Source: Heterodontus francisci (lineage: Eukaryota). From it: a stretch of 64,000 nucleotides of DNA. The notes beneath the pieces are model-generated. The model was not told where the DNA came from. It saw only the letters and a list, made by a program, of their open reading frames with translations, and made no database searches. The DNA lies in NCBI RefSeq assembly GCF_036365525.1, contig NC_090399.1, positions 49,508,430 through 49,572,429 of the forward strand. The letters are read 5' to 3'. Of the stretch, positions 14,555 to 60,710 are shown piece by piece. The position numbers were made by a program, and so were the translations under genes. How positions within the stretch are numbered: the stretch's first letter is position 1; each line of letters starts with the position of its first letter.

Positions 14555-14624
14555 ATGGGACCATATATACTTCCACAGATAGAAGCAGTTTACTATCCCA
14601 TCCTCGCACTGGTTGGTGTGCCTG
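14555..14624 (+). CDS. GPR139-like GPCR gene 1, coding exon 1 (MGPYILPQIEAVYYPILALVGVP)
   Basis: ATG at 14555, phase-1 donor G|gtaggt at 14625; homologous to exon 1 of gene 2 and to the GPR139 N-terminus (VYY..LL.LGLP|AN); joins 22498 in frame. Confidence 0.85.
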
Positions 14625-15433
14625 GTAGGTTGGAACGAATTATTCCTTTTATATCAGAATGTGACTGTGTTAATGTTCTTGCTGCCAGTGAAAAGTGTTA
14701 GTTTTTATTCATTATAATTCAACTTCGTTTCAATGTTGTTATGTTATGCTAATATATGTTGTTAAAACGTGAACAGTCTCATTTACATAGCACGTAATGA
14801 TGGAGGTGGTCATTTCATCGAATGAGTCATGAAAGGAGACTAGTCTCTCAAATCGCACTGCTGGAGAAAATCTAATTCTGCAGTTCCAACAAGGAACCAG
14901 AGATTCAGGAAGGCGTACTGAATACTAAATCAGAAAATCGTCACTGAAACATGTGCCACAGCGATTTTAATTTTACCGTATGGCAAACTCGATATTTTAG
15001 GGTTTTTTTCTTGTTTGATCCGTTTGCATTTCTCTTGCTTTTATTTTTGGAATCCGCGCAATGTCGTGCTATTCTTTGAACGCGTTTCACAAATTAAATG
15101 ATCTGACAATGAAACTTTAAGAACTGGGACATTTCTTGACATTTGGAGCAGTTTAATGCCGTGGACAAGCTGACAATTTGAATTGCTAATCTTGTATATT
15201 CCTTAGTATTTCTATAAAACTATGCGCTGTATACTGAACAGAGAGTGTTGGCCCAAGCTGTGCAATTCTAAAAAGAGATGTAATTTCCCCCTTATATTGA
15301 GCACGGTACTGAGTGGCGGGCAGGTTCCAGTAAAGACATCGAAGTAAAAGAGTGGCTGTTCGTAAACTGAGCTCTGGGTGCTTAAGATCAATGAAGAGAT
15401 AAATTGTACACTGAATAAAAATGAACAATGTAT

Positions 15434-15767
15434 GGCACAGTGGCGCAGTGGTTAGCACTGCAGCCTCACAGCTCCAGGGACCCGGGTTCGATTCCGGGTA
15501 CTGCCTGTGTGGAGTTTGCAAGTTCTCCCTGTGTCTGCGTGGGTTTTCTCCGGGTGCTCCGGTTTCCTCCCACAAGCCAAAAGACTTGCAGGTTGACAGG
15601 TAAATTGGGAATAATAAATTGTCACTAGTATAGGTAGGTGGTAGGGAAATATAGGGACAGGTGGGGATGTTTGGTAGGAATATAGGATTAGTATAAATGG
15701 GTGGTTGATGTTCGGCACAGACTCGGTGGGCCGAAGGGCCTGTTTCAGTGCTGTATCTCTAATCTAA
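15434..15767 (+). mobile_element. HE1-type V-SINE
   Basis: tRNA head (ggcgcagtggttagc..gggttcgattcc), V-domain (gtggagtttgcaagttctccc..gtgctccggtttcctccc), CR1-like tail; absent at the paralogous site ~31395. Confidence 0.9.
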
Positions 15768-15999
15768 AAAATTCGATATAGTCCATATCTAGATGGGAAT
15801 CAAAAGAAACAAACCAGCAGAGAGGTTTTGTCTTTAAAGACTTTTAACGTCCAAGTATTGTCCGAAATGTGCAAATCATAATTCACATATGCAAGTTAAA
15901 CAATTCGTACTGTTCACAATGAATGTGACGGATGACGCTGTATGTTAAAGAATAGGCACAAATTCTTTGGAGAGATAGGTGATCGGTTGAGTCCTAAAT

Positions 16000-17000
16000 T
16001 GTTTTCTGCACAAAGGCACTGACGATACCTCGATTTTGTGCCGGTGCATGATGAAACCACTTTCGCACATGTATTTTAAAACAAACGGTATAAAAATCTT
16101 GACAACCTTATCTGACAAATTTGAGAAATCTGGTTCTATTTGGAGCCAAAACTGGACAACTGCTTTTGGCGGAACTCGGTTTTCAGTCCGTCATTATTTG
16201 AGAAGGTGCGCTGTGTTTTTCTATTGACATTTCTTGCAGCATAGGTACTGCAGAACAATCTGTGAAAGAGTTGGGGACCCAACAGTTTGCATTTCTCATT
16301 GAGGGAAAGGAATCACATAATTTCCTCGCAAGTTTAGTCAGATTTAGCTTGATATCACCTTTAACACTGTCCTGCAACTGTAGTCATTGGTTATCAGGAA
16401 CGAAGGCCTGTTTGGGAAACTTCCAGTGCTGTTTTGCTCCAAAAAGCGAGCCCAGAATTCAATCGTTTTGGCCATTGACTCAGTTTAATTTTGCGCATCT
16501 AATATGGTTGCACTCAACCGTTGAAGTGCTAAATTAAGCTCCTCCTGGCGAGACAATATATCTGAAAAGTATCCTAAACGTACGAGCCAGGCTTTATCCT
16601 GCAGGCATTGAAATAGTGGAAATGCGTGTTCTGTAAAGAATAACTTGACCACAGAGTGAAATTCACAGAAACGTGCCAAGGTCATGTCACGTGTCAGCCA
16701 TCAAAGCTCCATGTGGAGCAATAAATTAAAGTGCATGCCACACAATTAATGGTTTCGTGAAGAAAATATTGTGGACCGCAAGGCTTGAGCTTTTGTAAAG
16801 TTCATTATCTGCATAGCATTGTCCAGTTGGTAGGCATGCTTTTAGTAGCATTGCTTCCAAATGCAGATGGAAATGCCACCATAATGCATTGGAAGCGACT
16901 GCTTTGATATGATCACTATTCCATTCAGCCTACCGATCATCGACTTTGACCCAGCATTGCAGATGCCAAGATATTGGCCCGGTTTTTGTACTCATCGGTG
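16000..17000 (-). mobile_element. hAT (Buster/Charlie-type) transposase remnant
   Basis: ORF 16485-16685 LARFCE..WLVRLGYFSDI..ELNLALQ matches the Buster/ZBED5/SCAND3 core; paralog at 31630-32520. Confidence 0.7.
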
Positions 17001-17429
17001 AGTTGGCTGTGTCTGCACTGAAAAATTCGCACTGATGTAGTTTGATGACGGGAGCGAGATTTTTAACGTCTGGCTGTATCTTGGGCTGACAACACGAGGA
17101 ACAGCGAGACCGTAAAGTAAAGTTCATTCTGGGCGAAACCATGCACCGAAAACACGTTGATTAAGTCGAAACTCAGCTGAGTATTCTACAATGATTTCAA
17201 AATCATTTAAACACAGTTTAAAAAATTACAAACAGTCATATACTTTGTAAGCCATTGCAAGAAGATTAACATAATCTCATAAACCTTTTAACAGTCTTTT
17301 AAAAACTTTAAAAACTTAAAAATAAATGGGAAAATGCATTCGGGACATTAAAAAGACGAGACAGCTTTTCTGAAAAGCATTTATTTACACAGTTACTTCT
17401 TCACCGAAAAGACGTTGGCACCGCAACAG

Positions 17430-17665
17430 ACAGATAAGAGAAACAGATGTCATAACTTCAGTAAATAAGACCTCTACACAATTCTCAATGAGGTGGAGGC
17501 AAAGTGTCACCAGCTTATTGGTAACATTAAGTGTAGTGTGTCCAGCATAGTTAGCATCTTAGTGTGGAAGGAGGTCACAGAGGCTGTGAAAGCTAACAGC
17601 ACCGTTCCATACACCAGAAAGCAATGTCACAAGAAATTGAATGATTTAATGCAATCTACCGTGCT
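17430..17665 (+). mobile_element. PIF/Harbinger Myb/SANT ORF remnant
   Basis: WKEVTEAVKANS..YTRKQCHKKLNDL resembles the Myb_DNA-bind_5 trihelix signature. Confidence 0.55.
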
Positions 17666-17929
17666 TAGCAGAGCTCTTTTTTACTTTATGTTCTGTGTAA
17701 GATTTTAAAGTTTATTAAACGAAGACCTTGTTTTTGTGTGGATGAGGCATTCAGGGTTACATGACGTCAAGTTGTTGTACAATTCACTTGCCTTTTGAGA
17801 CAGGGCTCACTAAGTGCTTAGAAAGATCTATTATCTGCACCGCACAAAGTGGAATGTGAAACTATCTCCAACCCACCCAACAAGTATTACCCAAACCACC
17901 AAAGAGGCACCAAGTGATACTTATTTTGC

Positions 17930-18360
17930 ATGTTTGTTTCGAGTAAAATGGCGTTCATTGACTGGCGTTGATGTGGCCTTTCTGAAGGATCTTCGTTTCT
18001 TGGTGTCATCTTCTTCCAGAAGGTTGATTGCCATGGATCTCTACCTCTGTCTATCCTGTGCTGTCCTTACACATTCTGCACAGGTCAACTGCATCCAGTC
18101 TATTATATATTATATCTGTCATCCATTTTCTTCTCTGCTTTCTTGTCCTATGTTTTCCATCGATCTTTCCGTCCAATAATTGTCTCTGTCTACGTTCTGC
18201 TCTAATGTTGTGACCAAAGTAATGTATCTTTTTCTCTTTGATGCTATGCACTAATTTCCTCTTTTCTACAGCCATTTCTAGCACTTCCTCATTAGTCTTT
18301 TTGTCTGTGTAGGATATGTGGAAAATTCTCTGATATGTCCACATCTCTTTCGTCCATGTT
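17930..18360 (-). mobile_element. RTE (BovB/Expander-like) 3' fragment
   Basis: ORF 18051-18344 ISYTDKKTNEEVL..YFGHNIR..LLDGKIDGK..RKQRRKWM. Confidence 0.8.
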
Positions 18361-18389
18361 TGTACCGAGGTATAATGAGGCCAGGAGTT

Positions 18390-19177
18390 GAGTGGCCCTG
18401 GCAGAACCCAAACTCAGTGCCACAAAAGTGCCAGGCAATGACCATCTTCAACAAGAGAGAATCCAATCATCTCCTTTTGACATTCATTCACCATCACTGA
18501 ATCCCGCACCATGAACATTCTGGGGATTACCATGGACCAGAAAATGAACTGGACAAGCCATATAAGTATTCTGGCGACACGACAGGTCAAAGGCTCTGAA
18601 TTCTGCAGCGAGTAACTCATCTCCTGACTCCCCAATGCCTGTCCGCCATCTAAAAGATACAAGTCACGACTGTGATGGATTAATTTCCACTTGCCTGGAT
18701 GGGTGCAGCTCCAACAAAACTCAAGAAGCTTGTCCCCATCCAGGACAAAGCAACCCCCAAGATTGGCACCCCAGCCACAACCTTCAACATTCCCCTTCAT
18801 CACTGATGCTCAGTTGCAGCAGTGTGAAGCATCTATAAGATGCACGCAGCAACTCACCAAGGGTCTTTTGGCTGCACCTTCCAAATCCGGTCGCACTTCC
18901 AAGGATAAGGACCGCAGACGCATGGGGACACCACCACCTGCAAGTTCCCCTCCAAGCCACACACCATCTTTACTTGGAACTATATCGCCGTTCCTTCACT
19001 GTCACCAGGTCATAATCCTGGAACTCCCTTCCTAACAGCACTGTGGGTGTTCCTACCCCACATGGACTGCAGTGGTTCGAGAAGACAGCTCACCACCACC
19101 TTGTCAAGGACAATTAGGGATGGGCAATAAATGCTGACCTGGCCAACGTCGCCCAAATCCGTGAAAGATTAAAAAAT
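18390..19177 (+). mobile_element. L2/CR1-superfamily LINE 3' fragment (same family as 36490-38833)
   Basis: Collinear with 37730-38833; tail caattagggatgggcaataaatgctg..cgccca.atcc. Confidence 0.8.
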
Positions 19178-19788
19178 AGATATCAATGATGGGATGATTG
19201 CTGTGTTTACAATATCGATAATTAGCAATTTGGAAAATAGAACTCCACCTCTAAAACTAACCAGCTACAAGTTAGAATATACCCAAATCAATGAGGACTC
19301 GAGAGATCGTCTTGTAATTCTTTTGCATGTTACTGTCGGGAAACATTTGAGTTGCCAAAGGGTTAGGTAGATTCCTGCACGTGCGATTGCTTGTGGATTA
19401 TCGGCTGTATCAATCTGCTTCAATGGCAGTCAAGGTATATATTATTCAAATACGCCTTGGCGGGGTGGAGTGGGGCTTTCCGGGGTTTGGGGGGGGTGGG
19501 GAGGGGGGCATGGGAAGGGGCATGGATTTATCAAAGTGCTTCGAACACGGATAACAAACATTAAATAAAAGCGGTTAATAATCAAAGGGACGATATTCCA
19601 CACATTGAAATATGATTGGTCAAATTGGAATTCCTTCTATTTTAAAGCGGCATAGTGCTGTGGCTGCCGTGGAATACGCCTTGATGTGGATTGGAGTCTA
19701 GAAGCTAGACAAAGGAAAGCGTGAATGACCTGCCAGTGTCATGTAAATGAAAGCAATAACAGGGAGAAATGTTTGTCTGTATTTTCTT

Positions 19789-21076
19789 TGGAAATTAGTC
19801 TTAAACACCATTCAAAAATTTGTGCTGCAGGCTCAATGTTGCTGAAAAATGGGAATGTGGCCCATGATATACTTTAACACATTTACGATCTGGAATTTTA
19901 CTTTTTGGAGCTGGGGGGCAGGGGTGTGATGGGGTTATTGCGTATTGGCATGTCAAACTAGAAACAGTGTTACTTATCAATAACATTGTTTGATGCAGTG
20001 AAACATCAATTATCTGAGCTGACAGGGCAAATGGATGTTCATGGGTAATGAAAGTACTGATCAATAAAGAAAATCAAAGTGAATCATGACAACCTTGGCA
20101 GCGCTGACGTCATCAGGCTGCGCCGCGGTGCGCACATGCGCACACGGTCACCTGCTCTCTGTGCATGCGCTGCTGTCCGGCTTGCCAGGGCCGTTTTGCG
20201 CATGCGCAGATGGCGTCATCGCGTAACGTCGTCTTCCTCGGGCAACGCGCCAGGTTGGCCTAAAGATGGCGCTGCTCAAAGAATCACACAGAGGAAACCT
20301 AACAAACACGTGGCAGCATAGAATGGCCGGAGTGAGAGAGTGGAGCGGGCCGGGGAGAGCAGCGCGGGGGGCGGGGAGACCAGCGGTGGCGGGGGGGGTA
20401 AAGAGGGAGAGAGGGGGGGGGAAAGAGGGAGGGGGGAGAGGGGGGGGGGAGAGAGGGGGGGAAAGAGGGAGAGAGGGGGGTAAAGAGGGAGAGAGGGGGG
20501 AAGAGGGAGAGAGGGGGAAGAGGGAGACAAGGGAGAGAGGGGGGAAAGAGGGAGAGGGAGAGAGGGGGAAGAGGGAGAGGGAGAGGGGGAGGGAAGAGGG
20601 AGGGAGGGGAAGAGGGAGGGGGGAAGAGGGAGGAGGGGAGGGAGAAAGGGAAGGGGTGGCGGAGAGGGAGGGGGTGGGGGAGAGGGAGGGGCGTGGGGGC
20701 GGGGGAGAGTGGGGGGGGGGAGGCAGCCTGATGACGTCAGCGCTGCCAAGCGTTGTCATGAATCACTTTGATCTTCTTTATTGATCAGTACTTTCATTAC
20801 CCATGAACATCCATTTGCCCTGTCAGCTCAGATAATTGAAGTTTCACTGCATCAAACAATGTTATTGATAAGTAACACTGTTTCTCGTTTGACATTCCAA
20901 TACGCAATAACCCCATCACACCCCTGCCCCCCCCCCCCCCCCCCCCCCCCCCAGCTCCAAAAAGTAAAATTCCAGATCGTAAATGTGTTAAAGTATATCA
21001 TGGGTCACATTCCCATTTTTCAGCAACATTGAGCCTGCAGCACAAATTTTTGAATGGTGTTTAAGACTAATTTCCA
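19789..21076. repeat. Long near-perfect inverted repeat (arms 19789-20121 and 20723-21076) around a CpG-rich and polypurine core
   Basis: Arms are reverse complements (mirror ORFs 19801-20064 - and 20781-21032 +); few substitutions; G6 versus ~C26 run. Confidence 0.95.
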
Positions 21077-21649
21077 CACCTCTAATGCAAGCCTGAGCAA
21101 CTCAACCCTCCCGGCAACATTGCCTGTGCATAATGAAATATTTTCTCTCAAGATTATCGACATGACAATTCATATGGACAAAGGATCAATAAAAATGGCA
21201 AACCAAATTTATGTTTTGGTGCTGCGAGTTTACATAAATTATTCTATAATTATCATTGGCGTTTACAGTTGCCATAACCTTATTATAAAAGCCTGAAACG
21301 TACATCTTGATCCGATGATGTGAACGGATTAGGCTCATTCTTACTGCGACACACAACAGTTTTTAAGGGCATAAAATGAAAACAAAATTACTCCGTTCCT
21401 CCAGAAAACCAGCATTTAATGGATAAATATAGGCCTATTTCGTTAAACAACATAAAAATAAATCACTGAATTTATGTTGGAAGTCAAACGAGACAATTTA
21501 AATGAGACTTTCCATCCAATTCAGGTTCATTGAAGTGGTAAAATGCTGTGGATGCCGGAGAGTACGGTATGATGTTGTAGGAGCCTAGAATTTAAACAAG
21601 ATAGTTAGTAGGATAGAGTGGACGGGATGTGCAAGAGAATCCGGCAGAG

Positions 21650-21700
21650 ATGTCTCATCTGCCCGAAGGCGTACGCGTACTATAGTTTGGGAAATGCTCA
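21650..21700. mobile_element. Probable hAT Charlie/Buster terminus (paralog ~34640-34688)
   Basis: gtacgcgtac..agtttgggaaatgct resembles Charlie-type subterminal and TIR sequence. Confidence 0.4.
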
Positions 21701-22497
21701 TTTAGCATAACTGCGAGATAGTAAATTCACCCCCTACGCAAGATATGTTCTACCAATTGTTTTGTTGCTTTGCAATGTCATGAACACTGATTCATTCATT
21801 GAGTTTTTGATTCTCTGATTCTGTGATTCCTGGATTGACTGATTTATTGGAGGAATTTTGACTTTCGTCGATCCCGTTAAATGAGCGACTTCGGATCAAC
21901 CACTTGTTCTACATTTCTCCCAATGTTTATTTCCTTTTAGTCCAATAGAAAGGAAAATCAAGAGAGAATAATAATGGCCAGCTGATCCGATGTCTCACAT
22001 TTTACACTATCCCCCGTATTTACATCTTTCCCGATTGTATTTCCATATAAGTAACTGGAAAGGAAAATGGAGAGACATGTAAAGTAAGCTGCTCGTCGCA
22101 ACCTTTCAGTTACACTCTTACACAAAGTCAATATCGTCCCAAGGTCATCACAGCTTCCTTCTTATAGGTTCCTATTAATTGTAAGGAAGGTGCACAATGT
22201 GTCTGATCAACATTGTCTGTGGAAGACAGATTTACCTGGGAAATATCAATCCATTCTGCAGCATTTATCTATTAGAGGTAACATAAGCTGTACAGAGCGT
22301 GAAAATGGCTGCTGAATCATGCTGAGTCGGTTTCGAGCTACTGCCTGAGATCCATTGCACATTATTACCCGAAGCAAAAGGAAACGGAGCAACTGCACAA
22401 AACATTTGGAGTTCAATTCCATATAGCATATTGTCAAACTGATCATTCCAGTGAATTGAGTGCAATTAGTATTTTTCACTTTCATTTTTTCTTGTAG

Positions 22498-23417
22498 GTA
22501 ATCTATTGTCGATTGTGATTCTCTGTCGTGGAAAGTGTGGACTTTCTAAATGTATCACTCGTTACATGGTGGCCATGGCAGCGGCAGATCTACTGGTGAT
22601 AATATTTGATGTGATATTGTATGAGATTAATTACATGTATTTCTCATATTCGTTCTTGGATTACACGCCAGTTTGCAGTCTAAACATGGCTCTGATTGTT
22701 GCAACCATAGATTGTTCTGTCTGGTTAACTGTCGCTTTCACCTTTGATCGATTCATCACTATTTGTTGCCAGAAATTGAGAGTCAAATATTGCACAGGAA
22801 GAACGGCGGCCATAGTTATAGCCACTGTCTTTGGACTGAGCTTTGTAGAAAACATTCCAATTTACTTTGAAACTGAACATCTGGAAATGATTAACAATAC
22901 AGCGTGGTCCTGCCGTTTAAAGTCAACCTCCTCGAGTTCACCTGCATCGATAGCATATTTCTTCTTTGACATTACCTTAACACCATTTGCACCATTTTTG
23001 CTGATTGTGTTGCTCAATGCACTGACGATCAGGCACATTGTACGGGCCAGTAGAGTGAGGAGGGGACTCCGGGAAAACAATAATAGTGAGATACACAATG
23101 ATCCAGAGATGGAGAACCGAATGAAATCCATCATATTACTGCTCGCCATCTCTAGCTCTTTCATCCTTTTATGGATGGTAACATTTGTTTATTATATATG
23201 TACACACTTTGCGGGCATTCTGTTTACGCTCACAGATTACAATGATCCATTCGCCATCATGGAGCACACTGGATACATGCTTCAGCGTTTGAGTTCATGT
23301 ACAAACACATTTATCTATGCAGTGGCTCAGGCTAAATTCAGAGAGGAATTGAAAAATCTCCTTAAATATCCCTGGTCTCAAATTGTTAGGTTAGTGGCTT
23401 CAAAAATTAAAACTTAA
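22498..23417 (+). CDS. GPR139-like GPCR gene 1, exon 2 (TM1 end to TM7); spliced protein 329 aa
   Basis: Acceptor ttttttcttgtag|GT; AAADLLV, PVCSL, TFDRF, ENIP, ECL2 Cys, DPEMENR, LLWM, SSCTNTFIY; uninterrupted to TAA. Confidence 0.93.
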
Positions 23418-23510
23418 TGTCATCTGAATTCAATGCAGCAATTCCCCAACATAGATCACAATATTCATTCTGAATCCATTGATAATCATATGGCACTTTA
23501 TCTTTCCAGC

Positions 23511-23514
<4 letters not shown>

Positions 23515-23550
<36 letters not shown>
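23515..23550. repeat. (TC)18 microsatellite
   Basis: Direct reading. Confidence 0.95.
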
Positions 23551-23553
<3 letters not shown>

Positions 23554-24959
23554 GTCCCTCTTTCTCTAACATATTAATAAGTGAGAGAACAAATTTTCTG
23601 AAGGAATGTGTCGCGTGACTGAATCCAGGTAAAGTCTTGCAGGGTGAAATTATTTTTGGGCAGCATCGCAGTTTGAGCGATAACAAAGCATCCGAAGCAT
23701 CCGCAGTATTTTGTTTTTATTATAGAAGGCATATGTTCTGTGCAATCGTACAGCCATGTATTTAATTTTCCTACAAGGGTGGTGTGTGTGTGGGGAGGGG
23801 GGATTTAATAATTTTACAGAGTGAGGACTATCTGAGTGCACATTAAGATCTCCAAAATTACTTTTAGCACTATACCAGAATCATGAAGCATGCCATACCT
23901 GAATATATCGGGCATCTGGTTTGAATGAAGAGGGAGGGAGTGTTTAATTTGGATCAACTTATCCCAATACTCCTTCGCTGGTTTTGATTTAGGGATATCA
24001 TTTTATCAGGAAATGGGGAAAACTGACATCTATTTGAATGCTCCCATAAGGACATAAGGTGGCCCAGAACAGAAAGATGACTCATGGGTCAACATATCGC
24101 TTCATCAGTTGCACCACCTTTCCAGAATAATTTCGATGTTTGTCTTTTACTTTGTTAGAATTTTTAAGTTATTCTAAGCAGCCGACATCTGAATTTAGGA
24201 TAAGCAATCTTGTGTTCGCTAACTCTCATAATCAGGCACTGGGATGAAAATGTCCCATTATTATTGTTTTCCAGACCCGACTATTCCGTAGTAATGATAA
24301 AGTTCCAGCTGTAATCGTTCGTTTTTAGTCAAATTGACAGCTTGAAAAAACGGATGAAACGGATGTGATGACGCAATCTCCCGAACATATTACAATTTTC
24401 CTTCATCAAATTCAAGTTAAAACAACTTCAGCAGGCGTCTGAAACTGAAGGTTGAAATAAAATATCAAAATAAAATAAAATAAGATTTGGCGATTCATTC
24501 CGGTCAATCCTGGAGGAAATAGTAAAGTATAAATGATATATTTGACAGCCAACAGATTGTTTTAATTCTTTATTTTCCTAATTTCGTCTAATTGTATTTA
24601 CCTGCATGAGCCCAGCCCATCAAATATTCATGTACAAACAACGCGACTTCAAATGATTATGCAGTGTTATTTCTTTAAATTCAACACCGTTCAGAAAAGG
24701 GGACGAAGCATACTTGTTATAACTATATTTATCATTTCACTTATTTTCTGATTTTAAAATTGTCAGTTTGAATTAATAAACTAATTCTAATCTCATCTAT
24801 CTTTCCTACGTCGTGAATTACACACCCTCCCAGCGATTTGAATGATCAGAATATAGGTTACTGACCCAGTTTTAGGTCCGGTACACAAAGTCACCCATAA
24901 TCTGCAGATTCTCCCTCTTCCTATGTAGTAAATTTGAAAGTTATAAATTCTTTTCCGTT

Positions 24960-29369: not shown

Positions 29370-30364
29370 ATGTAAATGTAATTATGCATCAAGAAATTCT
29401 CCTCAATCCATACACCTGACAGTAAATTTGGCAGGTAGAACACTGCACATCTACAAATTGCCCTTTTTTTTAGACGCCTTGTTAGGATGATGGTCACAAG
29501 ATCAGGAGGCCACATCAGACACAGCCACGATTATTTGGAATATATTTCCAGCCACCGTGACTACGCCAGGGTCTGAGAAAAAAAGAATTAAGTTCTACAC
29601 AAGTAGAAGAGCACTTACTGGCACCTAGGGTAAGATCAAATTGTTACTTAAGTACTCTGATCAAATATTAAGGGTAAAATTGCACTGGAAAATAAATTCG
29701 AGAGGTGTACAAACCAGACAAACTATGCCCAGCGATAAATGTGATAAATCACTATGAAATGATTGAAGATTTTCAGGGAACTGATAATTCAGGCAATGTT
29801 ACTGATAAATACCGTGTGGGCTCTGTGCGTATAATGTAGTAAAGTGTCACTTGAATGGCGAAACATGGCCCAATACCTGTCAATGCCTCAGTGGTATCTC
29901 ATATATACTTCTGGAGAAGGGATCTGCTTTAAAGTTGCTTATGATATTTCAGACTGTGGATAAGGCGCTGTCATCAGCATCTTGTGGGTCTTTCAGAAGG
30001 AAAGGTTTTGCTTCAGTTTGTTCCATGACATTTAGTTGTTGCAATGGTTGGACGTGAGCATCTATACATGTAGCAGACAGCACCATTGTGGATTCCAGAG
30101 CCAAAGCTTATTCCGAAGTCTCACAGAATCTGTCCATGCATCTGACCTGTGACTTTAGCATCATGACAGTATACTCCATAATGACGCGCAAAATGGTATG
30201 GAACTGCACAAAATTTGTTTGTAGGGCATTTTGTTCTGGAAATACACAGGGATCATTAACCGTTCCTAAAGTGGCTATCCCTGGCATCCAGCAATTCAGA
30301 TGTAAACTTTCCTTGGACCCTGTAATGTACGAAGCATTCTGAACTGTATCTGTATGAAGGAATT

Positions 30365-31030
30365 ATACGAAAATAAGAATGGGGAGCGGGAGTAGGCCAC
30401 CAGACCCCTCGAGCCGGCTCTGCCATTCAATAGGTTCATGGCTAAACTGATTACTCCACATTTCCACCTCCCCAAATAACCTTCCACCCCCTTGCTTATC
30501 AAAAATCTATTTATCTCTGCCTTAAAAATATTCAAAGATTCTGCATCTACAGCCTTTATAGGAAGAGAATTCCAAAGAGTCACGACCCTCTGAGAGAAAA
30601 AAATTCTCCTCATCTCTGTCTTAAATGGGTGATCCCTTATTTTTAAACAGTGACCCCTAGCTCTAGATTCTCCCACAAGAGGAAACATCCTTTCCACATC
30701 CACCCTTTCAAGATCCTTCAGGATCTTATATGTTTCAATCAAGCCGCCTCTTACTCTTCTAAATTGCAGCGGATACATGTCTAGCCTGTCCAATCGGACC
30801 TAATAAGACAGCCCACCTTTTCCAGGTATTAGTCTAGTAACAAAAGAAAAAAACAACATAGGAAATAGAAACAGGAGTGGGCCATTCAGCCCCTCAAGCC
30901 TGCCCCGACATTCAATAAGATCGTGGCTGATCTGCCCAGACCTCAACTCTTCTTTCGTGTTAGCTCTTCATAACCGTCAACTCCCCGTTATTTCCAATAT
31001 CTATCGACCTCCTCTTTAAAAACTTTCAGT
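30365..31030 (-). mobile_element. Two adjacent CR1 3' fragments (30365-30840, 30845-31030)
   Basis: ORF 30296-30793 is the CR1 C-terminus; second tail aacataggaaatagaaacaggagtgggccattcagccc. Confidence 0.85.
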
Positions 31031-31629
31031 GTCCGAGTGTGAATCCATACTATTAATTAATTAATTAATATTAATTAATATCTGGGACATTTCTTGATCT
31101 TTTAAGTAGTTTAATGCAATGTACAACTTAACAATTGTATTTGCCATTCTTGTCTATTCTTTACTGTTTTTATAAAAGTATGCGCCTTCTTAATGGAGCG
31201 AACAGAGAAGGTTGGCCCCAGATGTACAATCCGAAAAGATGTAATCCGCCTTACATATCGCAAGGTACTCAGTCTCGAGAAGATTCCAGTAAAGATATAG
31301 AATTAAATACTGACCGTTAATAAAACGTGGACTGAGTATTTAAGACGGTTCAATGGCAAGATAAATAGGATACCGAAAAAAATTACTGGCGTGTGGTACA
31401 AATTCCGTATAGTACTTATGCGAGTCATATGAAACAAACCAGCATATGGTTTTAATATTTTAACCCAATTAATATTCAAGCATTGTTCAAAATGTACAAA
31501 TTATAATTCACATATACAGCATAAACAATCGTTCAATAGTTCTTATTCGCTATTAAGGTGACGGATGAGATTGTTAAACGGGTGCATATTGTTTTGAGTC
31601 ATGGGTGAGAGCTTGAGTCATAAGTTGTT

Positions 31630-32520
31630 TTCTGCACAAAGGCAGTGACGATACCTCGAGTTTATTTCAGTGGCGGTGCAAATCCATTTTCACACATGTC
31701 AGTCATAGCAAACGGTATCAAAACCTTGCGAAAACCGTCTGACAATTCGGGGAATTCTGTTCGCACTTGGACGCAAAACTCAGGCAACTGCTTTTGTTGG
31801 AACTCATCATTTGGAAGCGCAATAGGTTCTCTTGTTCTTTTATCGACAATTCTTGTGACATGGATACTGCAGAAAAATCTGTTAAATTGTCGTGGATCCA
31901 ACTGTTTGCATTTCCCATTAAGCCAAAATAATCAAGTAATTGTCTCACCAGCCAGATATTGCTTGACGTCAAATTTACCACTGCCCTGCAACTGCAGTTC
32001 ATTGGTTGCCATGAATTCAAGCATGCTTGGGAAAATTCCAGTGCTGTTTTCTCCACAAAGCGAGACCAGAATTCCAGCTTTTTTTCCATCAACTCAATTT
32101 TTTCCTGGGCATTGACCCTTGAAATCCAAAGTTTAGCTGATTTAGGCGAGAGAATATACTGACAAGTAGCCCAATGGTGAGGCCGTGTCATGCAGAGACT
32201 TATATAGTGGAAATGTGTGTTCTGTAAAGAATAACCTTGAGCTCAGAGTGAAGTTCCAAAAGACGTGCCCAGAAAATATCCTGGAATTCAAGGGTCCAGC
32301 TATTTTTTCGAATGTTTACCATCTGCCTGGCATTTTCCAGGATCTTCTTCGAGTTGGTAGGCATATTTTTAGCAGAGTGCTTCCCTATGCATACGTCACT
32401 ACACCCAGATTGTATTGGAAGGGAGTGCTCTTATACGAGTCGCTACTCCATTGTAACTGGCAGTCATTGACGCGGGCTGTAATAACTCAGTAGTTCTCCG
32501 TGTCTGGAGATGTACAGGGC
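31630..32520 (-). mobile_element. hAT (Buster/Charlie-type) transposase remnant
   Basis: C-terminal dimerisation motif LPEFCVQVRTEFPELS..KVLIPFAMTDMCENGF (ORF 31662-31901). Confidence 0.75.
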
Positions 32521-33184
32521 ACAAATGACGCAGCAAACACTTATTGAAGCTTCCAGAGCGACTGGGTTACTTGAAACGCGGCCCAGATCATGACGATGAT
32601 GTCACACCAATCTTAGTTCCTTTTTTTTGGTACAGCAGTAACATCAGAGACCTCTCACGCGATTCACTGCCAAGTCAGTTCATTTCAGGCTGCTGTAATA
32701 TCGACACTACTCCGTGTTGGAAAGGGGAACATCGACCAGGATGACCAGCTATTGTGCTGGACTTAGCATCAGATTGTTTTCTTTTCAATTGAATTTCTTT
32801 TGAATCAAGCTGCCGAAAACATTCTGGAGAGTTTATTTCTGTAATCTGACATTTCCCATCACCAAAGAAACTGATCTCAAAGACGGCAATGATAAGATGA
32901 TTGATGTATTTATAAAATTGATATATAGCATTCTGGAAAACAGAATGTCGTCTTTAAAGCTAGTCCGCTACAAATCACAATATTCCCAATCCTAAATGTT
33001 GCATGTTATTCTTTTCCCAGTGGATACGTAGCCGTTGTGCAATTGTTTGTGGATTATAAACTGTATCAATCTGTCCCTGTCCTTTGATGTTAGCCGCAGT
33101 AAGAATTGTTTATTTTGTTCAAATACGCCTTGGGGGCAATGAATTAATAATCAAAGAGTTTTGAGCAAGGAAACCAAATAATCA

Positions 33185-33450
33185 ATAAACAACAACGACA
33201 TGTGTGTATATAGTGCCTTTGACGTAATAAAACGACACAAGACGCTTCACGGGAGCATTAAGTCAGATGACCAAAAGCTTGCTCAAAGAGGTAGGTTTTA
33301 AGGAGTGTATTAAAGAAAGAAAGTGAGACGGAGACGTGCAGGGAGGGATGTCCAGAGGTCAGAGCCCAGGCAACAGAAGGCACGGCCACCAACGGTGGAG
33401 AGAGGTAAAAGGGAGTACTCGAAAGGCCAGAATTAGGTGAGCACAGACCA
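33185..33450 (-). mobile_element. L2 3' fragment
   Basis: LLKTYLFEQAF C-terminal motif (ORF 33258-33656) and aacaac tail. Confidence 0.7.
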
Positions 33451-34861
33451 AAAATGGTTGTTGGTCCAAGGAACGACCTTTTGCACCTTGAATCATAATT
33501 AGTCAAATTAGAAATTCCTTGTATTTTTAAATGAGACTTGCAGCCCAATTCAGGGTCTTTGAAGGGGCTAAATGCTGTGGATGCCATAGAATACGCCATT
33601 AGTTTGGAGTTGAGAAGCAAGCCAATTAGTGCGTTAAACACGTCAGTATCATGCAAATAACACCAATAACAAGAAAAAACAGGTTGTAGAGGTGTTCTTT
33701 ATTGATCAGAACTTTCATTACCCAAAACCTGTGAATTATCAAAACATGTCCTGACCCAGTTAGCTCAGATAATTAAACTTCCGCTGCAACAAAGAATGTT
33801 ATTGTTCAGTGGCACTGTTTGAGACTGAACAAACCAATGCGAACTAATCAGATCTCACCCCGTCCCCTAGCTTCAAAAAAATAAAATTGCAGATAGTAAG
33901 CATTGTCCATAATATTATATGGCACATTCCTCAGGATGCTTGCTATATTTCCGTAACATTAGCCTGTAATGCAACACTTTGAGTGGGGTTTACGCAAAGT
34001 TCAACACCACAGAAGCCAGCCTTTGCAATTCTCCCCCTCCCACAAGCGCCGTTCCTGCATAATGCAAAACAAAATCTCTGCACGATAAATCGACATACTA
34101 ATTTATGTGGGCAATAGATCAATAAAAATGGCAGACTCATGTTATGTTATAATGGTAGGAACTACCTATATTATGGTCATCCAAACTTGTAGAAATTGTC
34201 CTATAATTCTCGCTGAAGCTTTTACAATGAAATTATGGCAAATGTAAAGGGCAAAAGTACATCATGATCTGCTGATGTGGCAGATTAGGCGCATTTCCAT
34301 TCTTACTCAATATTTATTATTTTAAGGAAATAAAATGAAAGCAAATTGACTCGGTTCCTTTTGGAATCCAGCTTTTACTGGATAAGTGCAGTTCTATTTC
34401 AGCAAAACAAATAATAAATCACTGAATTCTTCCTGTAAGTCAAATGAAAGGATTTAAATGAGACTTGTCACTCAATTCAGGGTCATTAAAAGGGCAAATT
34501 TCTGTGCATGCTGGAGAATACGCCATGATGTAGTTGGAGTCTAGAATTTAGCCAAGGGAGTGTGTGAGAACGGTTGGAGGAGAGGAGCAAGAGGATACAC
34601 CGCCATTTCACAATTTCTTCAGCGTATCCCCCAGGGATGTCTCACGTATCCCCCAAAGGCACACGTACCACAGCTAGGTAACTGCTGATTTAAACCAACA
34701 TGTTGACATAGTTGATTCCACACGCATGTTAAGATCTATTCTATCATCTGCATTAGTATTTTGCAATGTTATGAATACTGATTCATTGATTGATTCGTTG
34801 ATTTGTCGATTCTTTTATTCTGTGATTTCAGGATTGACTAATTCATTGGGACAGTTTTGAT

Positions 34862-36489: not shown

Positions 36490-38833
36490 CTCCACCATTA
36501 CCTTCAAATCTTGGTTCAATGAGGAGTGTAGTGGAGCATGCTACGAGCAGCACCAGGCATACCTAAAAATGTGGTACCAACCTGGTGAAGCTACAAGGCA
36601 GGACGACATGCTAAAGAGTAGAAGCAGCATGCAATGGACAGAGCAAAGCAATCCCACAATCAATGGATAAGCTCAAAGCTCTGCAGCCCAGCTACATTCA
36701 GCCTTGAATGGGGGTGGATAATTAATCAATGGGAGGAGGAGGCTCCACGAACATTCCCATCCAGAATGATGGTAGAGCCCAGCACGTCAGTGTAAAAGAC
36801 AAGGCTGAAACTTTTGCAACCACCTTCAGCAAGAAGTGCCGAGTGGATGATCTATCTCAGCCTCCTGCTGAGGTTCCCAGCATCATAGCTGCCAGTTGTT
36901 AGCCAATTCGATTCGCTCCATAAGATATCAAGAAACAGCTGAGTGCCCTGTACACAGGAAAGAGTATGGGCCCCCACAAGATCCCACCTGTCTTGCTGGA
37001 GACTTCTGCTCCAGCGTAGCCATGCCTCTAGATGAGGTGATCCAGTACAGCAACAACATTGGCATCTGTTCAACAACTGGCAACTTACCCAAGTATGTCA
37101 TGTACTCAAAAAAAACAGCACAAATCCAATCCAACCAATTACTGCCCCTTCAATCTACTCTCAATCCTCAGCAAAGTGATGGAAGGTGACATCAATAGTA
37201 TTATCAAGCTGCACTAACTTGGCAATAACCTCATCACAAATCCTCAGTCTGGGTTCCACCAGGACAACTAGACTCCAGATCTCATTACAGCATTCGACCA
37301 AACATGGAAAAAAGAGCTGAATTCCAGATGTCAGGTGATACTAACTACCCTTGACATCAAGACAGCATTTTGCCAAGTGTGGCATCAAGACGACTGAGTA
37401 AAATTGTAGTCAATGGGAATCAAGGGTAAATTCTCCACTCGATGGAGTCATAACTAGAACAAAGGAAATTTTTGCACTTGTTGGAAATCGATCATCTCAG
37501 TCATTGTTGTAGCAGTTCCTTAACATATGTCCTGGGCCCAACCATCTTCAGCTGCTTCATTAATGACTTTCCCTCCATCATAAGGTCAGACATGGGGATG
37601 TTTGCTGATAATTGCACAGTGTGCATTCCCATTCATAGCTCCTGAGATGATGAACTAGTCTGTGCCGGAATTCAGCAAGGCCTGGACAATATTCAATCTT
37701 GGTCTGATAGGTGACTACTTATATTAGCCACACACAAGGGCCAGGCGATGACCATCTCTAACAGGAGAGTATCTAACTATCTCCCCTTGATGTTCAACAT
37801 CATTACCATCACCAAATCCCCTCCGATCAACATCCTGGGGTTGTCATTGACCAGAAATTTAACTGGACCAGCCACATAAATACTGTAGCGACAATAGCAA
37901 TCAGGGGCTTGGAATTCTGCAGAGCGTAACTCACCTTTTGACTCCTCAGAGCCTATCCACCATCCCAGAAGGCACAAGTCAAAGTGTAATGGAATAGCCC
38001 CAACTTCCCGAGACGAGTCGAGCTCCAATGACTTTCAAGAAGATCGACACCATCCAGGACAAAGCAGCACAATTCTTTGGCACCCCATCCAACACCTTAA
38101 ACGTTGATTCCCTCCACCACCAGTGCACAGTGGCTGCAGTGTGTATCATTTACAAGAGCCACTGCAGCAACTCACCAAGGACCAGCTCAACAGCTCCTTC
38201 CAAACCCGCAATCTTTACCATCCAGAAGACCAAGGGCAACACCACATGGGAACACCTCTACCCGCAAGTTCCTCTCCACCACACATACCATCCTGACTAG
38301 ATTACACAGTGGCGCAGTGGTTGTGCACCGCAGCCTCACAGCTCCAGGGACCAGGGTTCGATTCCGGGTACTGCCTGTGTGGAGTTTGCAAGTTCTCCCT
38401 GTGTCTGCGTAGGTTTTCTCCGGGTGCTCCGGTTTCCTGCCAAAAGACTTGCAGGTTGGTAGGTAAATTGGCCATTATAAATTGTCACTAGTATAGGTAG
38501 GTGATAGGGAAATACAGGGACAGGTGGGGATGTTTGGTAGGAATATGGGATTAGTGTAGGATTAGTACAAATGGGTGGTTGGTGGTCGGCACAGACTCGG
38601 TGGGCCGAAGGGCCTGTTTCAGTGCTGTATCTCTAATCTGATTACCATTCCTTCACTCTCACTGGGTCAAAGTTCTGGAACGCCCTCCCTCACTGTACTT
38701 TGGTTGTACCTACAGCACACGGACTGCAGCAGTTGAAGAAATCGGCTCACCACCATCTTCTCGTGGGTAATTAGGGATAGGCAATAAATGCTGGCCTTGC
38801 CAGCGATGCCTAAATCCCATGAATGAATAAAAA
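36490..38833 (+). mobile_element. L2/CR1-superfamily LINE, 5'-truncated and degraded
   Basis: RT remnants (LDIKTAF..VWHQ, LGPTIFSCFIND, MFADNC); tail gcaataaatgctggccttgccagcg..atcccatgaatgaataaaaaa. Confidence 0.82.
38305..38640 (+). mobile_element. HE1-type V-SINE nested in LINE
   Basis: Near-identical to 15434-15767; possible TSD gattac (38300-38305 and 38640-38645). Confidence 0.9.
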
Positions 38834-40559: not shown

Positions 40560-40600
40560 GTAAGTTATTCTCAGTAATTGTTTATCTTTGCGAGTGTTTA

Positions 40601-41345
40601 AGAACAAAGAACAAAGAAAATTACAGCACAGGAACAGGCCCTTCGGCCCTCCAAGCCTGCGCCGATCCAGATCCTCTATCTAAACATGTCGCCTATTTTC
40701 TAAGGGTCTGTATCTCTTTGCTTCCTGCCCATTCATGTATCTGTCTAGATACATCTTAAAAGACGCTATCGTGCCCTCGTCTACCACCGCCGCTGGCAAC
40801 GCGTTCCAGGCACCCACCACCCTCTGCGTAAATAACTTTCCACGCATATCCCCCCTAAACTTTTCCCCTCTCACTTTGAACTCGTGACCCCTAGTAATTG
40901 AATCCCCCACTCTGGGAAAAGCTTCTTGCTCTCCACCCTGTCTATACCTCTTATGATTTTGTACACCTCAATCAGGTCCCCCCTCAACCTTCGTCTTTCT
41001 AATGAAAATAATCCTAATCTACTCAACCTCTCTTCATAGCTAGCGCCCTCCATACCAGGCAACATCCTGGTGAACCTCCTCTGCACCCTCTCCAAAGCAT
41101 CTACATCCTTTTGGTAATGTGGCGACCAGAACTGCACGCAGTATTCCAAATGTGGCCGAACCAAAGACTTATACAACTGTAACATGACCTGCCAACTCTT
41201 GTACTCAATACCCCGTCCGATGAAGGAAAGCATGCCGTATGCCTTCTTGACCACTCTATTGACCTGCGTTGCTACCTTCAGGGAACAATGGACATGAACA
41301 CCCAAATCTCTCTGTACATCAATTTTCCCCAGGACTTTTCCATTA
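40601..41345 (-). mobile_element. Young CR1 3' fragment in GPCR2 intron
   Basis: Nearly identical to 47957-48690; ORFs 40871-41305 and 40680-40910. Confidence 0.92.
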
Positions 41346-42006
41346 ACTGTGCTGCTGCTTTCTGCCTGTGCAATAACGACATCATCTCAATCTGTCTATT
41401 CATTGATTTTAATGGTTTCAGAAAGACGGAAAACATGTTATCAATTCCCAATTCCCGCATATTCTTCTAAATAAATTATATTATTAGGCCATAATACTTA
41501 ACTTTTGTTGGACATTTATCAGCGTCAAACACAAAGGACAGGATTGAATATTAAGAGATGATTAATACTGTTACATTATTATAAGTTGCAATGGAAAATA
41601 ACGAAGGTTAGTTGCAGAAAATACACAAAAGCATTTGTAGATCCGTTTTATGTTATCATTGAAGTAATGCGTAAACAAGGCACTGAATCTGTAAGGGCCC
41701 TGCTGTAAAATCTGCGTGATCCCTGATTTGAGTCTAAAGTGTCTGAACAACTAAATGGCAAATGACTATTAAGCTCCAAATGTTACCCAATTTCACAAGT
41801 TGTTGTTTTCCTTTGAGGTAACAGCCAATAAATGATGTGGCGTGGATTGCTAAATAGTTATGCCTCCTCAGGATTTCCACATTTACGCGGACAGAGTGAA
41901 TGATTTGAGTGAAAGAAAAATCAGCACTAATTATTACAGTTTATTTTGTTCGAATTATTCGTCAAGTCTATGCTCCTGATTTATTTCATTACTCCCCCAC
42001 TTGCAG

Positions 42007-47300: not shown

Positions 47301-50300
47301 TATGGCCCTATTTGTTTCTCACCCTTGATTTCTATGCCTTCCACTTTTGTCTTTTTGTTTCCTGTCTTTCGTTTCTATCCTTGTTTCCTCCTCCTCAGTC
47401 ACCCCACTCAGGTTCCCATCCCCCTGCCATTCTAGTTTAAATCCTCTCCAACAGCATTAGCAAACGCCCCTGCGAGGACATCGGTTCCAGTCCTGCCTGG
47501 GTGTAACCCATCCCACTTGTTCAGGTCTCACCTTCCCCAGAACAGGTCCCAATGTCCCAGGAATCTTAATCCCTCCCTCGTGCACCATTTCTCCAGCCAC
47601 ACATTCATCTGGTGAATTCTCCTGTTCCTATACTCACTAACAGGTGGCACAGGAAGTAATCCTGAGATTACTACCTTTGAAGTCCTGCTTTTTAATTTAG
47701 CTCCTAATGCCTTAAATTCATCTTGCAGGACCTCATCCCTTTTTCTGCCTATGTCATTGCTACCAACATGGACCACGACCAACGGTTGTTCACATTCCCC
47801 CTTCAGAATGTCCTGCAGCTGCTCCAAGACATCCTTGACTCTAGCACCAAGGAGGCAACATACCATCCCGGAGTCTCAGTTGCAGCCACAGAAACGCCTG
47901 TCTGTTCCCCTTACAATTGAATCTCCTATCACGATGGCTCTCCCAGTCTTTTTCAAAGATACAAAGAACAAAGATAATTACAGCACAGGAACAGGCCCTT
48001 CGGCCCTCCAAGCCTGCGCCAATCCAGATCCTCTCTCTAAACATGTCGCCTATTTTCTAAGGTTCTGTATCTCTTTTCTTCCTGCCCATTCATGTATCTG
48101 TCTAGATACATCTTAAAAAACGCCATCGTGCCCGCATCTACCACCTCCGCTGGCAACGCGTTCCAGGCACCACCCTCTGCGTAAAGAACTTTCCACGCAT
48201 ATCCCCCCTAAACTTTTCCCCTTTCACTTTGAACTCGTGTCCTCTAGTAATTGAATCCCCCACTCTGGGAAAAAGCCTCTTGCTATCCACCCTGTCTATA
48301 CCTCTCATGATTTTGTACACCTCAATCAGGTCCCCCCTCAACCTCCATCTTTCTAATGAAAATAATCCTAATCTACTCAACCTCTCTTCATAGCTAGCGC
48401 CCTCCATACCAGGCAACATCCTGGTGAACCTCCTCTGCACCCTCTCCAAAGCATCCACATCCTTTTGGTAATGTGGCGACCAGAACTGTACGCAGTATTC
48501 CAAATGTGGCCGAACCAAAGTCCTATACAACTGTAACATGACCTGCCAACTCTTGTACTCAATACCCCGTCCGATGAAGGAAAGCATGCCGTATGCCTTC
48601 TTGACCACTCTATTTACCTGCGTTGCCACCTTCAGGGAACAGTGGACCTGAACACCCAAATCTCTCTGGACATCAATTTTCCCCAGGACTTTTACATTTA
48701 CTGTATAGTTCACTCTTGAATTGGATCTTCCAAAATGCATCACCTCGCATTTGCCCTGATTGAACTCCATCTGCCATTTCTCTGCCCAACTCTCCAATCT
48801 ATCTATATTCTGCTGTATTCTCTGACAGTCCCCTTCACTATCTGCTACTCCACCAATCTTAGTGTCGTCTGCAAACTTGCTAATCAGTCCACCTATACTT
48901 TCCTCCAAATCATTAATGTATATCACAAACAACAGTGGTCCCAGCACGGATCCCTGTGGAACACCACTGGTCACACGTCTCCATTTTGAGAAACTCCCTT
49001 CTACTGCTACTCTCTGTCTCCTGTTGCCCAGCCAGTTCTTTATCCATCTAGCTAGTACACCTTGGACCCCATGCGCCTTCACTTTCTCCATCAGCCTGCC
49101 ATGGGGAACCTTATCAAACGCCTTACTGAAGTCCATGTATATGACATCGACAGCCCTTCCCTCATCAATCAACTTTGTCACTTCCTCAAAGAATTCTATT
49201 AAGTTGGTAAGACATGACCTTCCCTGCACAAAACCATGTTGCCTATCACTGATAAGCCCATTTTCTTCCAAATGGGAATAGATCCTATCCCTCAGTATCT
49301 TCTCCAGCAGCTTCCCTACCACTGACGTCAGGCTCACCGGTCTATAATTACCTGGATTATCCCTGCTACCCTTCTTAAACAAGGGGACAACATTAGCAAT
49401 TCTCCAGTCCTCTGGGACCTCACCCGTGTTTAAGGATGCTGCAAAGATATCTGTTAAGGCCCCAGCTATTTCCTCTCTCGCTTCCCTCAGTAACCTGGGA
49501 TAGATCCCATCCGGACCTGGGGACTTGTCCACCTTAATGCCCTTTAGAATACCCAACACTTCCTCCCTCCTTATGCCGACTTGACCTAGTGTAATCAAAC
49601 ATCTGTTCCTAACCTCAACATCCGTCATGTCCCTCCCCTCGGTGAAAACCGATGCAAAGTACTCGTTTAGAATCTCACCCATTTTCTCTGAGTCCAAGCA
49701 TAACATTCCTCCTTTGTCCTTTAGTGGGCCAATCCTTTCTCTAGTTACCCTCTTTCTCCTTATATTTGAATAAAAGGCTTTGGGATTTTCTTTACCCTGT
49801 TTGCTAAAGATATTTCATGACCCCTTTTTGCCCTCTTAATTCCTCGTTTCAGATTGGTCCTACATTCCCGATATTCTTTCAAAGCTTCGTCTTTCATCAG
49901 CCGCCTAGACCTTATGTATGCTTCCTTTTTCCTCTTAGCTAGTCTCACAATTTCACCTGTCATCCATGGTTCCCTAATCTTGCCATTTCTACCCCTCATT
50001 TTCACAGGAACATGTCTCTCCTGCACGCTAATCAACCTCTCTTTAAAAGCCTCCCACATATCACATGTGGATTTACCTTCAAACAGCTGCTCCCAATCTA
50101 CATTCCCCAGCTCCTGCCGAATTTTGCTATAGTAGGCCTTCCCCCAATTTAGCACTCTTCCTTTAGGACCACTCTCGTCTTTGTCCATGAGTATTTTAAA
50201 GCTTACGGAATTGTGATCACTATTCCCAAAGTAGTCCCCTACTGAAACTTCAACCACCTGGCCGGGCTCATTCCCCAACACCAGGTCCAGTATGGCCCCT

Positions 50301-58147: not shown

Positions 58148-60216
58148 CTGAAAAATATTAGAAACAGTTTTATAATTAGACATGTGGATGGACAGTCATA
58201 TGGCACTGCTCATGGTAAGTGAAATTAGACATTTTTGCTATGAATAGTATTCCCATACTATATGGCCCATAAAATATTACCTTATTTAGAAAGAGGAAGG
58301 GGAGGAAGAATGAGAACTTGAATGTGTGAGGAGACAGTGAGAGACGAGGGAAAGGAGAGGGCAAAGTGGAGAGAAAGCAGGTCAGAGAGGTGAAGGAATG
58401 AGTGAAGGAGAGAGGGAAGAGTGATAGAGGATGACTAGAAGGGAGGGAGATGGGGAGGTAACAGTCAGTGGGTCAGGAAAGATTTCCCTATTCAATGATG
58501 GGTTAGCATGAGCCTAATTCCATTCACCGCTCCATTCATTGGGCTTAGGTGCATGGTTTGAAATGTTCATGGGGGTTGCGGGGAGAGAAGACCAAACAGA
58601 TGAGTTACTCCGCTTGGTGGGTCAGTAACATTAGGGAGGGAGAGTTCTTTGGGAGTAGAAGGTCCTGATTGCTGCTCAGTGTGTTAGGGAAGTCTTAAAT
58701 ATACAAGATGTGCTCTTTACTACTGGGAGGGCAAACGATGATATAAGGATGCATAGAGGGAGTGGAAGGTCATGAAGCTGGCTAGTGAGGGGGAATGCAG
58801 TGTTAAAGTGCTACTCAGTGACATGGGGGAGCGTTTGGGGGGAAAGTGAACAATGTTGGAGGGTAGGTGCTTCACCATCTGGGAAAATTACATCAGTGAC
58901 GGAGGTTCGGCAGTCTAACTGCTGCCTGGTTTGAGGAGAACACGTCAATTGTCAACTGTGGGGGAATCAAGTGATGGGGAATGGAAGAATGGGCAGAGTC
59001 AGGGAGGTAGGGCTATTCACTTGGAGTGGAGCTTTGGGACATTGAGGAACAAAGAAGGGTAGCGAAAATATTGCTTCATTAGGGGACAGGTCACCAAGTT
59101 ATAGGATCTACTACATGGTAGGAGGAGGAGGGGGAAACGAGGCCTAAGTTGGTGATCAGTGCTGAGTGAGAATGAAGGATAACTCCTTGAAAAGCTCCTC
59201 ATGGTGAAGAGGAAGCAACAGCAATGGCCCTGGTGAATGGGAGGGGGGAGCTGGGACAAAGGCAAGGTTCCTGGTGAATGTAGGGTTGGGTAGAAACAAT
59301 ATGGATGGGCCTAGTGAGTGTGGTGGGACAAAAGCAATGGTCCTGGTGAATGAGAATAATGAAAAAGGCAATGGTCCTGGGGAATGGGGGCAGTAGAGAG
59401 GCTCTAAATGGGCCTGGTAGAAAATTACATCGCTTACTAGTGAAACATGGTTTCCAGAGTAGTCACAACAGGTCACAAATATAAATATGCTGCTGGAAGG
59501 CCCATGGGAAATGATTGTGGTCACGGTGCTCAGTGAGACAGGGGTAAAGCTCATGTCTCCTGACTTGGCTTACTGGTTGGGCCATGGAGCCAGTAGCCAT
59601 GTGGAAGAAGCCTGTGTCTGCAGGGTCTGGTGAAAGGGGCAATATGAGGGGCAGTTGAATAGTTGATGCTCAGCACGCCAGCTCTCAGGGATGAGGGATA
59701 GAGCTTCTGACCATTCCCAAACATCTCTGTGTTGGAACTTTTTGGGTCGGGACTCACGGTGCAAAGTTACAACTCCTAAAAATGTAAAAGACTAAATTAT
59801 CTGCATAAAATTTGCATTTAGTTAAAATAGTTAAATTCTTACCTTCTTTTACTTATACCATTGCACAGCCTGCAATTGCATACAGACTTTAATACCACAG
59901 CTCAATTTAGTGCAAGGTCCACTTTGTACTATCATGTAACATTAGCTAGTACCCTATCATCTTCAATCTGTCACATAATGTTATGTTTACAAGTCTCACT
60001 ATTGGTACAGCAGTTTTGGAATCTCACCATTTTCAAGTTAGGTAAATAGACACACAGACAGAGAGACAGATGGAAATATGATTATATGAGTCTGTGTATA
60101 CACAGAAAAGCATACCTTTAATGAGCCGGTAGCTGTTATTACCTAATTAAAGGGATTGTATAAAACAACACGTGACATGCACACATTGGGCTGCTGCATC
60201 ACGAAATTGTCCTTAC

Positions 60217-60483: not shown

Positions 60484-60710
60484 CTAAATGATAGAAAGAT
60501 AATTATTTTCAACTTCAATAAAAATCGCACATTTCATGACAAAATCAAGGGGATAATTTTAGCTTTTGCTGCTGGAATTAAATGGGAAATATTGGATCAG
60601 CCACCTGTGAAAGGAATCTGGGAAGAGGTATAAACGGAAGCAGATCCAATATCATCCGTCGTACACTATCGCCAAACTTTAAAGTTACCCCCAGCTTGTT
60701 CTGAACTTAC

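Follow-up and report, generated by a model that had tools for sequence, protein, structure and literature searches.

An inverted-end mini-element in a GPCR intron of Heterodontus francisci lies next to a backwards copy of its own downstream flank

Within the 64-kb stretch of Heterodontus francisci DNA analyzed here (the window), the intron of a GPCR gene contained a 696-bp element with inverted ends (20075-20770), and 286 bases of the neighboring DNA were duplicated in inverted orientation beside this element. The element was likely a non-autonomous cut-and-paste transposon (MITE), and the flank duplicate was likely a one-off scar rather than a new kind of element. The data pointed to fold-back primed by the terminal repeat of an inverted-end element. 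In the favored account, which we regard as evenly poised between right and wrong, only the left end of the MITE was cut, the free end snapped back to pair with the right terminal repeat, copying proceeded outward, and the product was rejoined at the edge of the left duplication (coordinates in Table 1).

Table 1. Features of the GPCR intron insertion and of its in-window counterpart
Feature	Position	Strand	Remarks
GPCR exon 1, coding part	14555..14624	+	in-frame join to exon 2, GT donor
GPCR intron harboring the insertion	14625..22497	+	7,873 bp
Left target-site duplication copy	19781..19788	+	8 bp; 9 bp with 19789; empty homologue has the site once
Inverted copy of right host flank 20779-21076	19789..20066	-	arm alignment; X1 records 2 and 4
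Target-site duplication, inverted third copy	20067..20074	-	same letters as left copy
Left terminal repeat	20075..20121	+	47 bp; outer part likely recopied from right end
Module A: subterminal GC-rich part plus spacer, high-copy family	20122..20260	+	strand-switch joints between 20208-20210 and 20260-20261; depth
Module B: high-copy segment, then purine tract (~20330-20722)	20261..20722	+	987 X24 reads with other sequence before 20260
Right terminal repeat	20723..20770	-	48 bp; carries the family letters at the two positions that distinguish the repeats
Right target-site duplication copy	20771..20778	+	one later substitution, 20773
Host flank, template of the inverted copy	20779..21076	+	collinear with paralogue from 33700
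GPCR exon 2 (7tm_1)	22498..23417	+	domain match
In-window paralogous empty site	33680..34010	+	comparison within the 64-kb window

The arms 19789-20121 and 20723-21076 matched at 327/333 aligned bases (6 substitutions and one 1-base gap), which bore out the first-pass annotation of the extra DNA as an inverted copy of the downstream flank plus an ~700-bp core bounded by inverted repeats of ~47 bp. Of the 6 pairs within 3 kb that were listed for the window, only this one was inverted and longer than 50 bp, and a C run had 26 bases in the host flank 20779-21076 versus 6 in the inverted copy. The end motif of the element occurred twice in the window versus 0.08 times expected, and the purine tract of module B was 94% purine and rich in G runs. 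The insertion lay, as annotated, within the intron of the first GPCR gene (GPCR1), which contained both the element and the arms; this gene was intact and encoded a 329-aa rhodopsin-family GPCR.

The direct repeat 19781-19789/20771-20779 matched at 8/9 bases (chance ~2e-4 for a fixed pair of places), an inverted third copy at 20066-20074 was identical to the left duplication, and the two element ends each abutted copies of the same target duplication and flank. Because base 19789 could belong to the direct repeat or to the inverted copy, two readings fit: (i) a 9-bp duplication plus a 1-base microhomology and (ii) an 8-bp duplication without any; the direct repeat first annotated as 9 bp can also be read as 8 bp. 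The only new junction was 19788/19789, a host-to-host joint at the edge of the left duplication. The in-window paralogue, diverged by 23-25%, had the site once, as had been claimed; the paralogous stretch at 33695 was located upstream of the second GPCR's first exon (~40490) and not within that gene's intron. The two bases flanking the element on each side read alike, a point in favor of a host-only inverted duplication having formed first, with the element inserted later into its tip with a 2-bp duplication. This order of events was considered very improbable: it would need insertion at the exact center, it would leave unexplained both the 8-9-bp direct repeat and the variant shared by the two terminal repeats (see below), and it would place switch point 4 before point 1, a class unobserved in the accessible part of PMC5453318.

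The segment 19530-20345 was aligned to 4 of the 24 listed sequencing runs: X1, which may be the sample from which the window was assembled; X24, which was another sample; and X5 and X6 (other organisms; 7% of words), to which nothing from 19530-20345 aligned. Four X1 contigs were informative: (i) record 2, a 277-base contig with a depth of 4.1, ran across the left junction with 0 differences, reaching 29 bases inside it, under the 31-base bar for bridging; (ii) record 4, a 130-base contig (19789-19918), had a depth of 7.06, as two collapsed arms would give, and ended at the G run that marks the divergence of the arms; (iii) record 1 (depth 3.95) joined 19783 to 20073 on the opposite strand, so that the two flanks met directly, with differences at 18/244 and 16/146 bases; and (iv) record 3 (depth 12.2) joined 19667 to 20071 on the opposite strand. 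Records 1 and 3 were empty homologues with 7-13% divergence, much closer than the in-window paralogue. The inner junction 20074/20075 was covered by none of the X1 contigs listed, and the depth of 6.07 at this place was explained by the two empty homologues. Since the arm differences at 19860 and 20005 were absent from the X1 contigs, some of the arm differences may be assembly errors or dropped variants.

An artefact of assembly or of fold-back reads was held to be hardly credible. No listed contig spanned the whole stretch, X1 was possibly the source sample, and both the C26 run and some arm differences may be errors; against this, the junction contig carried no differences at its depth, the shared arm contig started at 19789 and stopped at the very G run of arm divergence, and the sequence resumed the collinear flank at a target duplication. 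The observed structure was confirmed as real. The empty homologue may be a second haplotype, diverged by 7-13%, rather than a paralogue, and the insertion would then be polymorphic. Two further observations were made on these runs: in X1 (19540-20073; records 1, 2, and 5), the depth of the junction contig (4.1) was like that of the empty homologue (3.95 and 4.33), and in X24, the empty homologue's letters were found in 3/3 reads at five listed places within 19573-19604.

High copy number marked the core, which belonged to an abundant family, and did not extend to the host part of the arms: over 20090-20345, the depth was 6,308-48,754 in X1 and 195-1,382 in X24, versus 6-31 and 0-3.5, respectively, over the flanks and the host arm, depth being a rough guide to abundance and no copy count. 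The whole 330-bp arms were not the terminal repeats of this family, a possibility that the first-pass annotation had put up for checking, because the X1 depth was 11-31 over their host part versus thousands over the core. The strand turned at 20208-20210/20260-20261 in 17/2,619 X24 reads and 1/952 X1 contigs, the shorter side of these joints spanning up to 67 bases. Another 103 X24 reads and 6 X1 contigs exited the window after 20261 into sequence resembling the inverted left arm, and the X1 consensus past 20261 matched the reverse complement of 20124-20143 at 18/20 bases with one gap in a by-eye comparison. The other members looked like hairpin-shaped, inverted-end mini-elements, as MITEs do, and partial reads suggested a native right terminal repeat in other copies. 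The copy in the window was likely chimeric, with parts of two subfamilies joined at 20260/20261; most reads from each side of this module boundary ran into other sequence, and the right part was likely of separate origin because 987 X24 reads carried other sequence before 20260. Tandem copies of an 89-bp unit were present in 3 contigs and 6 reads.

The assignment as a MITE was consistent with a short, non-coding element with inverted ends, with a high copy number in two runs, and with a target-site duplication of which the empty site had a single copy. No Pfam match was obtained for frame 20061-20318, the scan leaving out the low-complexity frames of the purine tract; a transposase or THAP domain was found in 0 of the 131 open frames of at least 85 aa in the window; and Rfam gave 3 matches on 17000-24000, all far below the gathering score. 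A hammerhead was found neither by Rfam nor by pattern search, no tail or coding remnant was found in the core, and folding of the core's unique part was no better than that of shuffles (z -1.3 and -0.8). The end-motif scan of metagenome contigs gave 0 matches; single matches in a viral and a prokaryote contig covered 19-23 bases only and were rejected as chance. The element words at 20105, 20198, 20263, and 20732 were presumably CRE, NRF1, and YY1 binding motifs, and judging by such words, the element might act as a portable promoter. Separately, the NRF1-like word and the 9-base YY1-like word were seen nowhere else in the window.

A retro-element origin was also weighed, in which a Penelope-like or other target-primed cDNA folded on its own start while integrating and the 47-bp repeat, rather than being a terminal repeat, was part of the same copy. 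Penelope-like insertions with inverted pLTR ends and 8-10-bp duplications are known from the accessible part of PMC3846280 and share both of these features with the present insertion; no host flank in the inverted copy was described there, however, and the present core had neither hammerhead nor tail nor coding remnant. The other family members looked hairpin-shaped around an internal spacer, and this origin was regarded as quite improbable. No pLTR-linked RT/GIY-YIG frame was found in the window.

The superfamily may be P or hAT. The terminal five-base pattern was compatible with the patterns of both, and the intact left duplication argued weakly against a hairpin-type donor end as in hAT elements. 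The duplication, read in one copy, fit the P range of 7-9 bp (8-bp) at either 8 or 9 bp; in the sources as far as available, an 8-bp duplication fits both P (PMC1562414) and hAT (BuT4, PMC2775673). Compared to P MITEs and foldback-like Galileo in the accessible parts of PMC1562414, PMC3698922, PMC2775673, and PMC7776569, the element shared a non-coding nature, the 200-2,500-bp size class, terminal repeats, a duplication readable as 8 bp, a chimeric interior, high copy, and an internal tandem unit in some members, but (i) its repeat was 47 bp versus 27-31 bp in Anopheles and Drosophila P, (ii) no partner transposase was found here, and (iii) a flank copy of this type was not described in those parts. 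No description of the geometry or the family, and no high-copy P-type MITE in the lineage of Heterodontus francisci, was found in the literature searched, with older and subscription papers largely outside the search.

Transposon-linked duplication of flanking DNA, inverted in the sister-chromatid case, was shared with Ac/Ds sister-chromatid transposition (PMC3239180) and Composite Insertions (PMC4270019). As described in the accessible parts of these two papers, such systems depend on a pair of elements or on a fractured element, and their transposon ends lie either at the new target or on the outer sides of the insertion; sister-chromatid transposition in particular joins a transposon end to the new target (PMC3239180). 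Here, unlike in those systems, there was one element with both ends inside and a host-to-host junction. Two candidates were rejected: Ac/Ds sister-chromatid transposition, as 19788/19789 was host-to-host with no transposon end at a new target, and Composite Insertion, as the transposon termini were not on the outside of the duplicated segment. The first-pass annotation had offered either a TIR element with sister-chromatid transposition or fold-back/template-switch synthesis; the inverted-end element and the fold-back were favored, the sister-chromatid junctions misfit, and the two alternatives were better merged.

Evidence on the copying tract came from the outer terminal repeats. Among the rows listed (a further 168 loose-end and 84 variant rows stood outside them), the left ends of the family began like the 20075 copy but mostly differed in 20094-20103; other letters before 20104 and 20107 were carried by 120 and 106 X24 reads and by 42 and 10 X1 contigs, respectively. 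The X24 depth of 0.54 per direction over the bin 20062-20089 corresponded to one read each way whose alignment reached exactly 20075 (15/28). The outer-repeat variant was therefore rare among family left ends, yet it was present at both ends of the 20075-20770 copy. Because a rare variant was shared by both ends, the simplest reading of these letters is that a single copying tract, templated by the right end and its flank, would have renewed the outer left repeat and produced the flank copy; the sharing would also be explained if a subfamily carried the variant at its two ends.

The favored single-end account would comprise four steps: (i) the element inserted with an 8-bp (or 9-bp) duplication, as the empty homologues show; (ii) a break, probably an abortive single-end transposase cut, would have fallen exactly between the left duplication and the element, to judge from the junction; (iii) the free 3' element end, probably trimmed, would have annealed to the right terminal repeat and, on this presumed priming, repair synthesis would have copied the outer repeat, the duplication, and ~280 bases of flank, which is the product seen in the arms; and (iv) end-joining to the left flank would have used 0-1 base of microhomology, as the observed junction indicates. 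P-element ends are cleaved asynchronously and left with 17-nt 3' single strands in the accessible part of PMC7776569; by analogy, P-type cleavage would supply the free end for such a snap-back because the ends are cut one after the other.

Replication template switching without a transposase, in which, following an ordinary insertion, the nascent strand folds at the terminal repeats or jumps strands, copies ~300 bases, and returns, was considered rather unlikely, even though its product would be identical to that of the snap-back. The four-point events of PMC5453318, as far as the paper was available, shared with the present case a local reverse-complement copy forming an inverted repeat, two switch points, and the same order of these points (type 1-4-3-2, mirror 3-2-1-4, accounting for 31% of human-chimp events); the 47-bp repeat would give homology for one switch, and G-quadruplex-type patterns in the purine tract could stall a fork. 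Those events, however, were short-range and accounted for clusters that extended over a few tens of bases, whereas the tract here was 286-333 bp, with one switch in a transposon terminal repeat and the other at the duplication edge; this second, non-homologous switch fell at most 1 base from the element edge, a position explained by a cut and not by a random stall.

Hybrid-end sister-chromatid transposition would have freed a 286-bp piece of the sister by a right-end cut plus a local strand transfer and rejoined it, flipped, at the left break. Hybrid element insertion and sister-chromatid transposition do yield flanking inverted duplications (PMC3239180 and PMC2775673, in their accessible parts), and identical ends could allow the cut ends to anneal. 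In the available part of PMC3239180, however, the known products contain 1-3 element copies derived from an element pair and join a transposon end to the new target, whereas here there was a single element and no element end at 21076; moreover, a half-completed strand transfer would be required, and with P chemistry the conversion would reach only ~17 bases into the repeat, short of the shared variant, which lay 20-29 bases in. This route was accordingly judged improbable.

The remainder of the window contained LINE fragments, two rhodopsin-family GPCR genes, and MHC class I-like exons. The region 30100-34860 was paralogous to the intron of the first GPCR, and a pattern search of it found no first exon; it reads as a rearranged or orphan unit, with the first exon of the second GPCR at ~40490. 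The MHC class I-like exons were on the minus strand at 60688-60999 and 60146-60502 (alpha-2 E 2e-14 and C1-set E 5e-21), and their best solved match was 9ch4_A (E 1e-40); because this match far exceeded those to other class I chains, the comparison suggests a distinct non-classical lineage. The LINE 3' ends at 40600-41350 and 47956-48704 were 95% alike, a sign of recent LINE activity, and a near-intact 558-aa RT frame was present at 48138-49814. A 330-bp repeat, probably a SINE, had two copies (15436-15765 and 38305-38639) that were 90% alike.

The first-pass annotation had called the insertion event recent, and this held in relative terms. The arms differed at 6/333 bases (1.8%), while the nearest empty homologue (within the 7-13% range) differed from the left arm at 32/273 (Fisher p 4e-7); because the arms differed far less than this homologue, the event appears to be young relative to the duplications of the cluster. 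The order of insertion and flank copying was probed through near-fixed differences between the copy and the family: over 242 bp there were 6 versus 2.2 expected (p 0.024), but 2/6 were at CpG and a subfamily effect is possible, so that the comparison did not date the insertion as the earlier event. The region folded in silico into a single 333-bp stem (-743 kcal/mol), and the GPCR pre-mRNA is predicted to carry this stem, most likely without function.

As a single event of modest interest, the insertion would represent a clean fossil of a half-cut transposon under repair, all of whose junctions can be read, and it illustrates a way for a MITE to convert unique intron sequence into a long hairpin. 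A broader proposal, which we regard as a long shot, is that the family recurrently copies its own flank after single-end cleavage, so that, of the hundreds to thousands of copies in the family, many would have planted 200-300-bp intronic hairpins. If the family did repeat such flank copying, the rate of single-end cleavage and the number of new dsRNA loci would be countable in one genome, and if the proposal were true, it would mean a transposon-driven source of host-sequence dsRNA in Heterodontus francisci and possibly an undescribed vertebrate P-type MITE.
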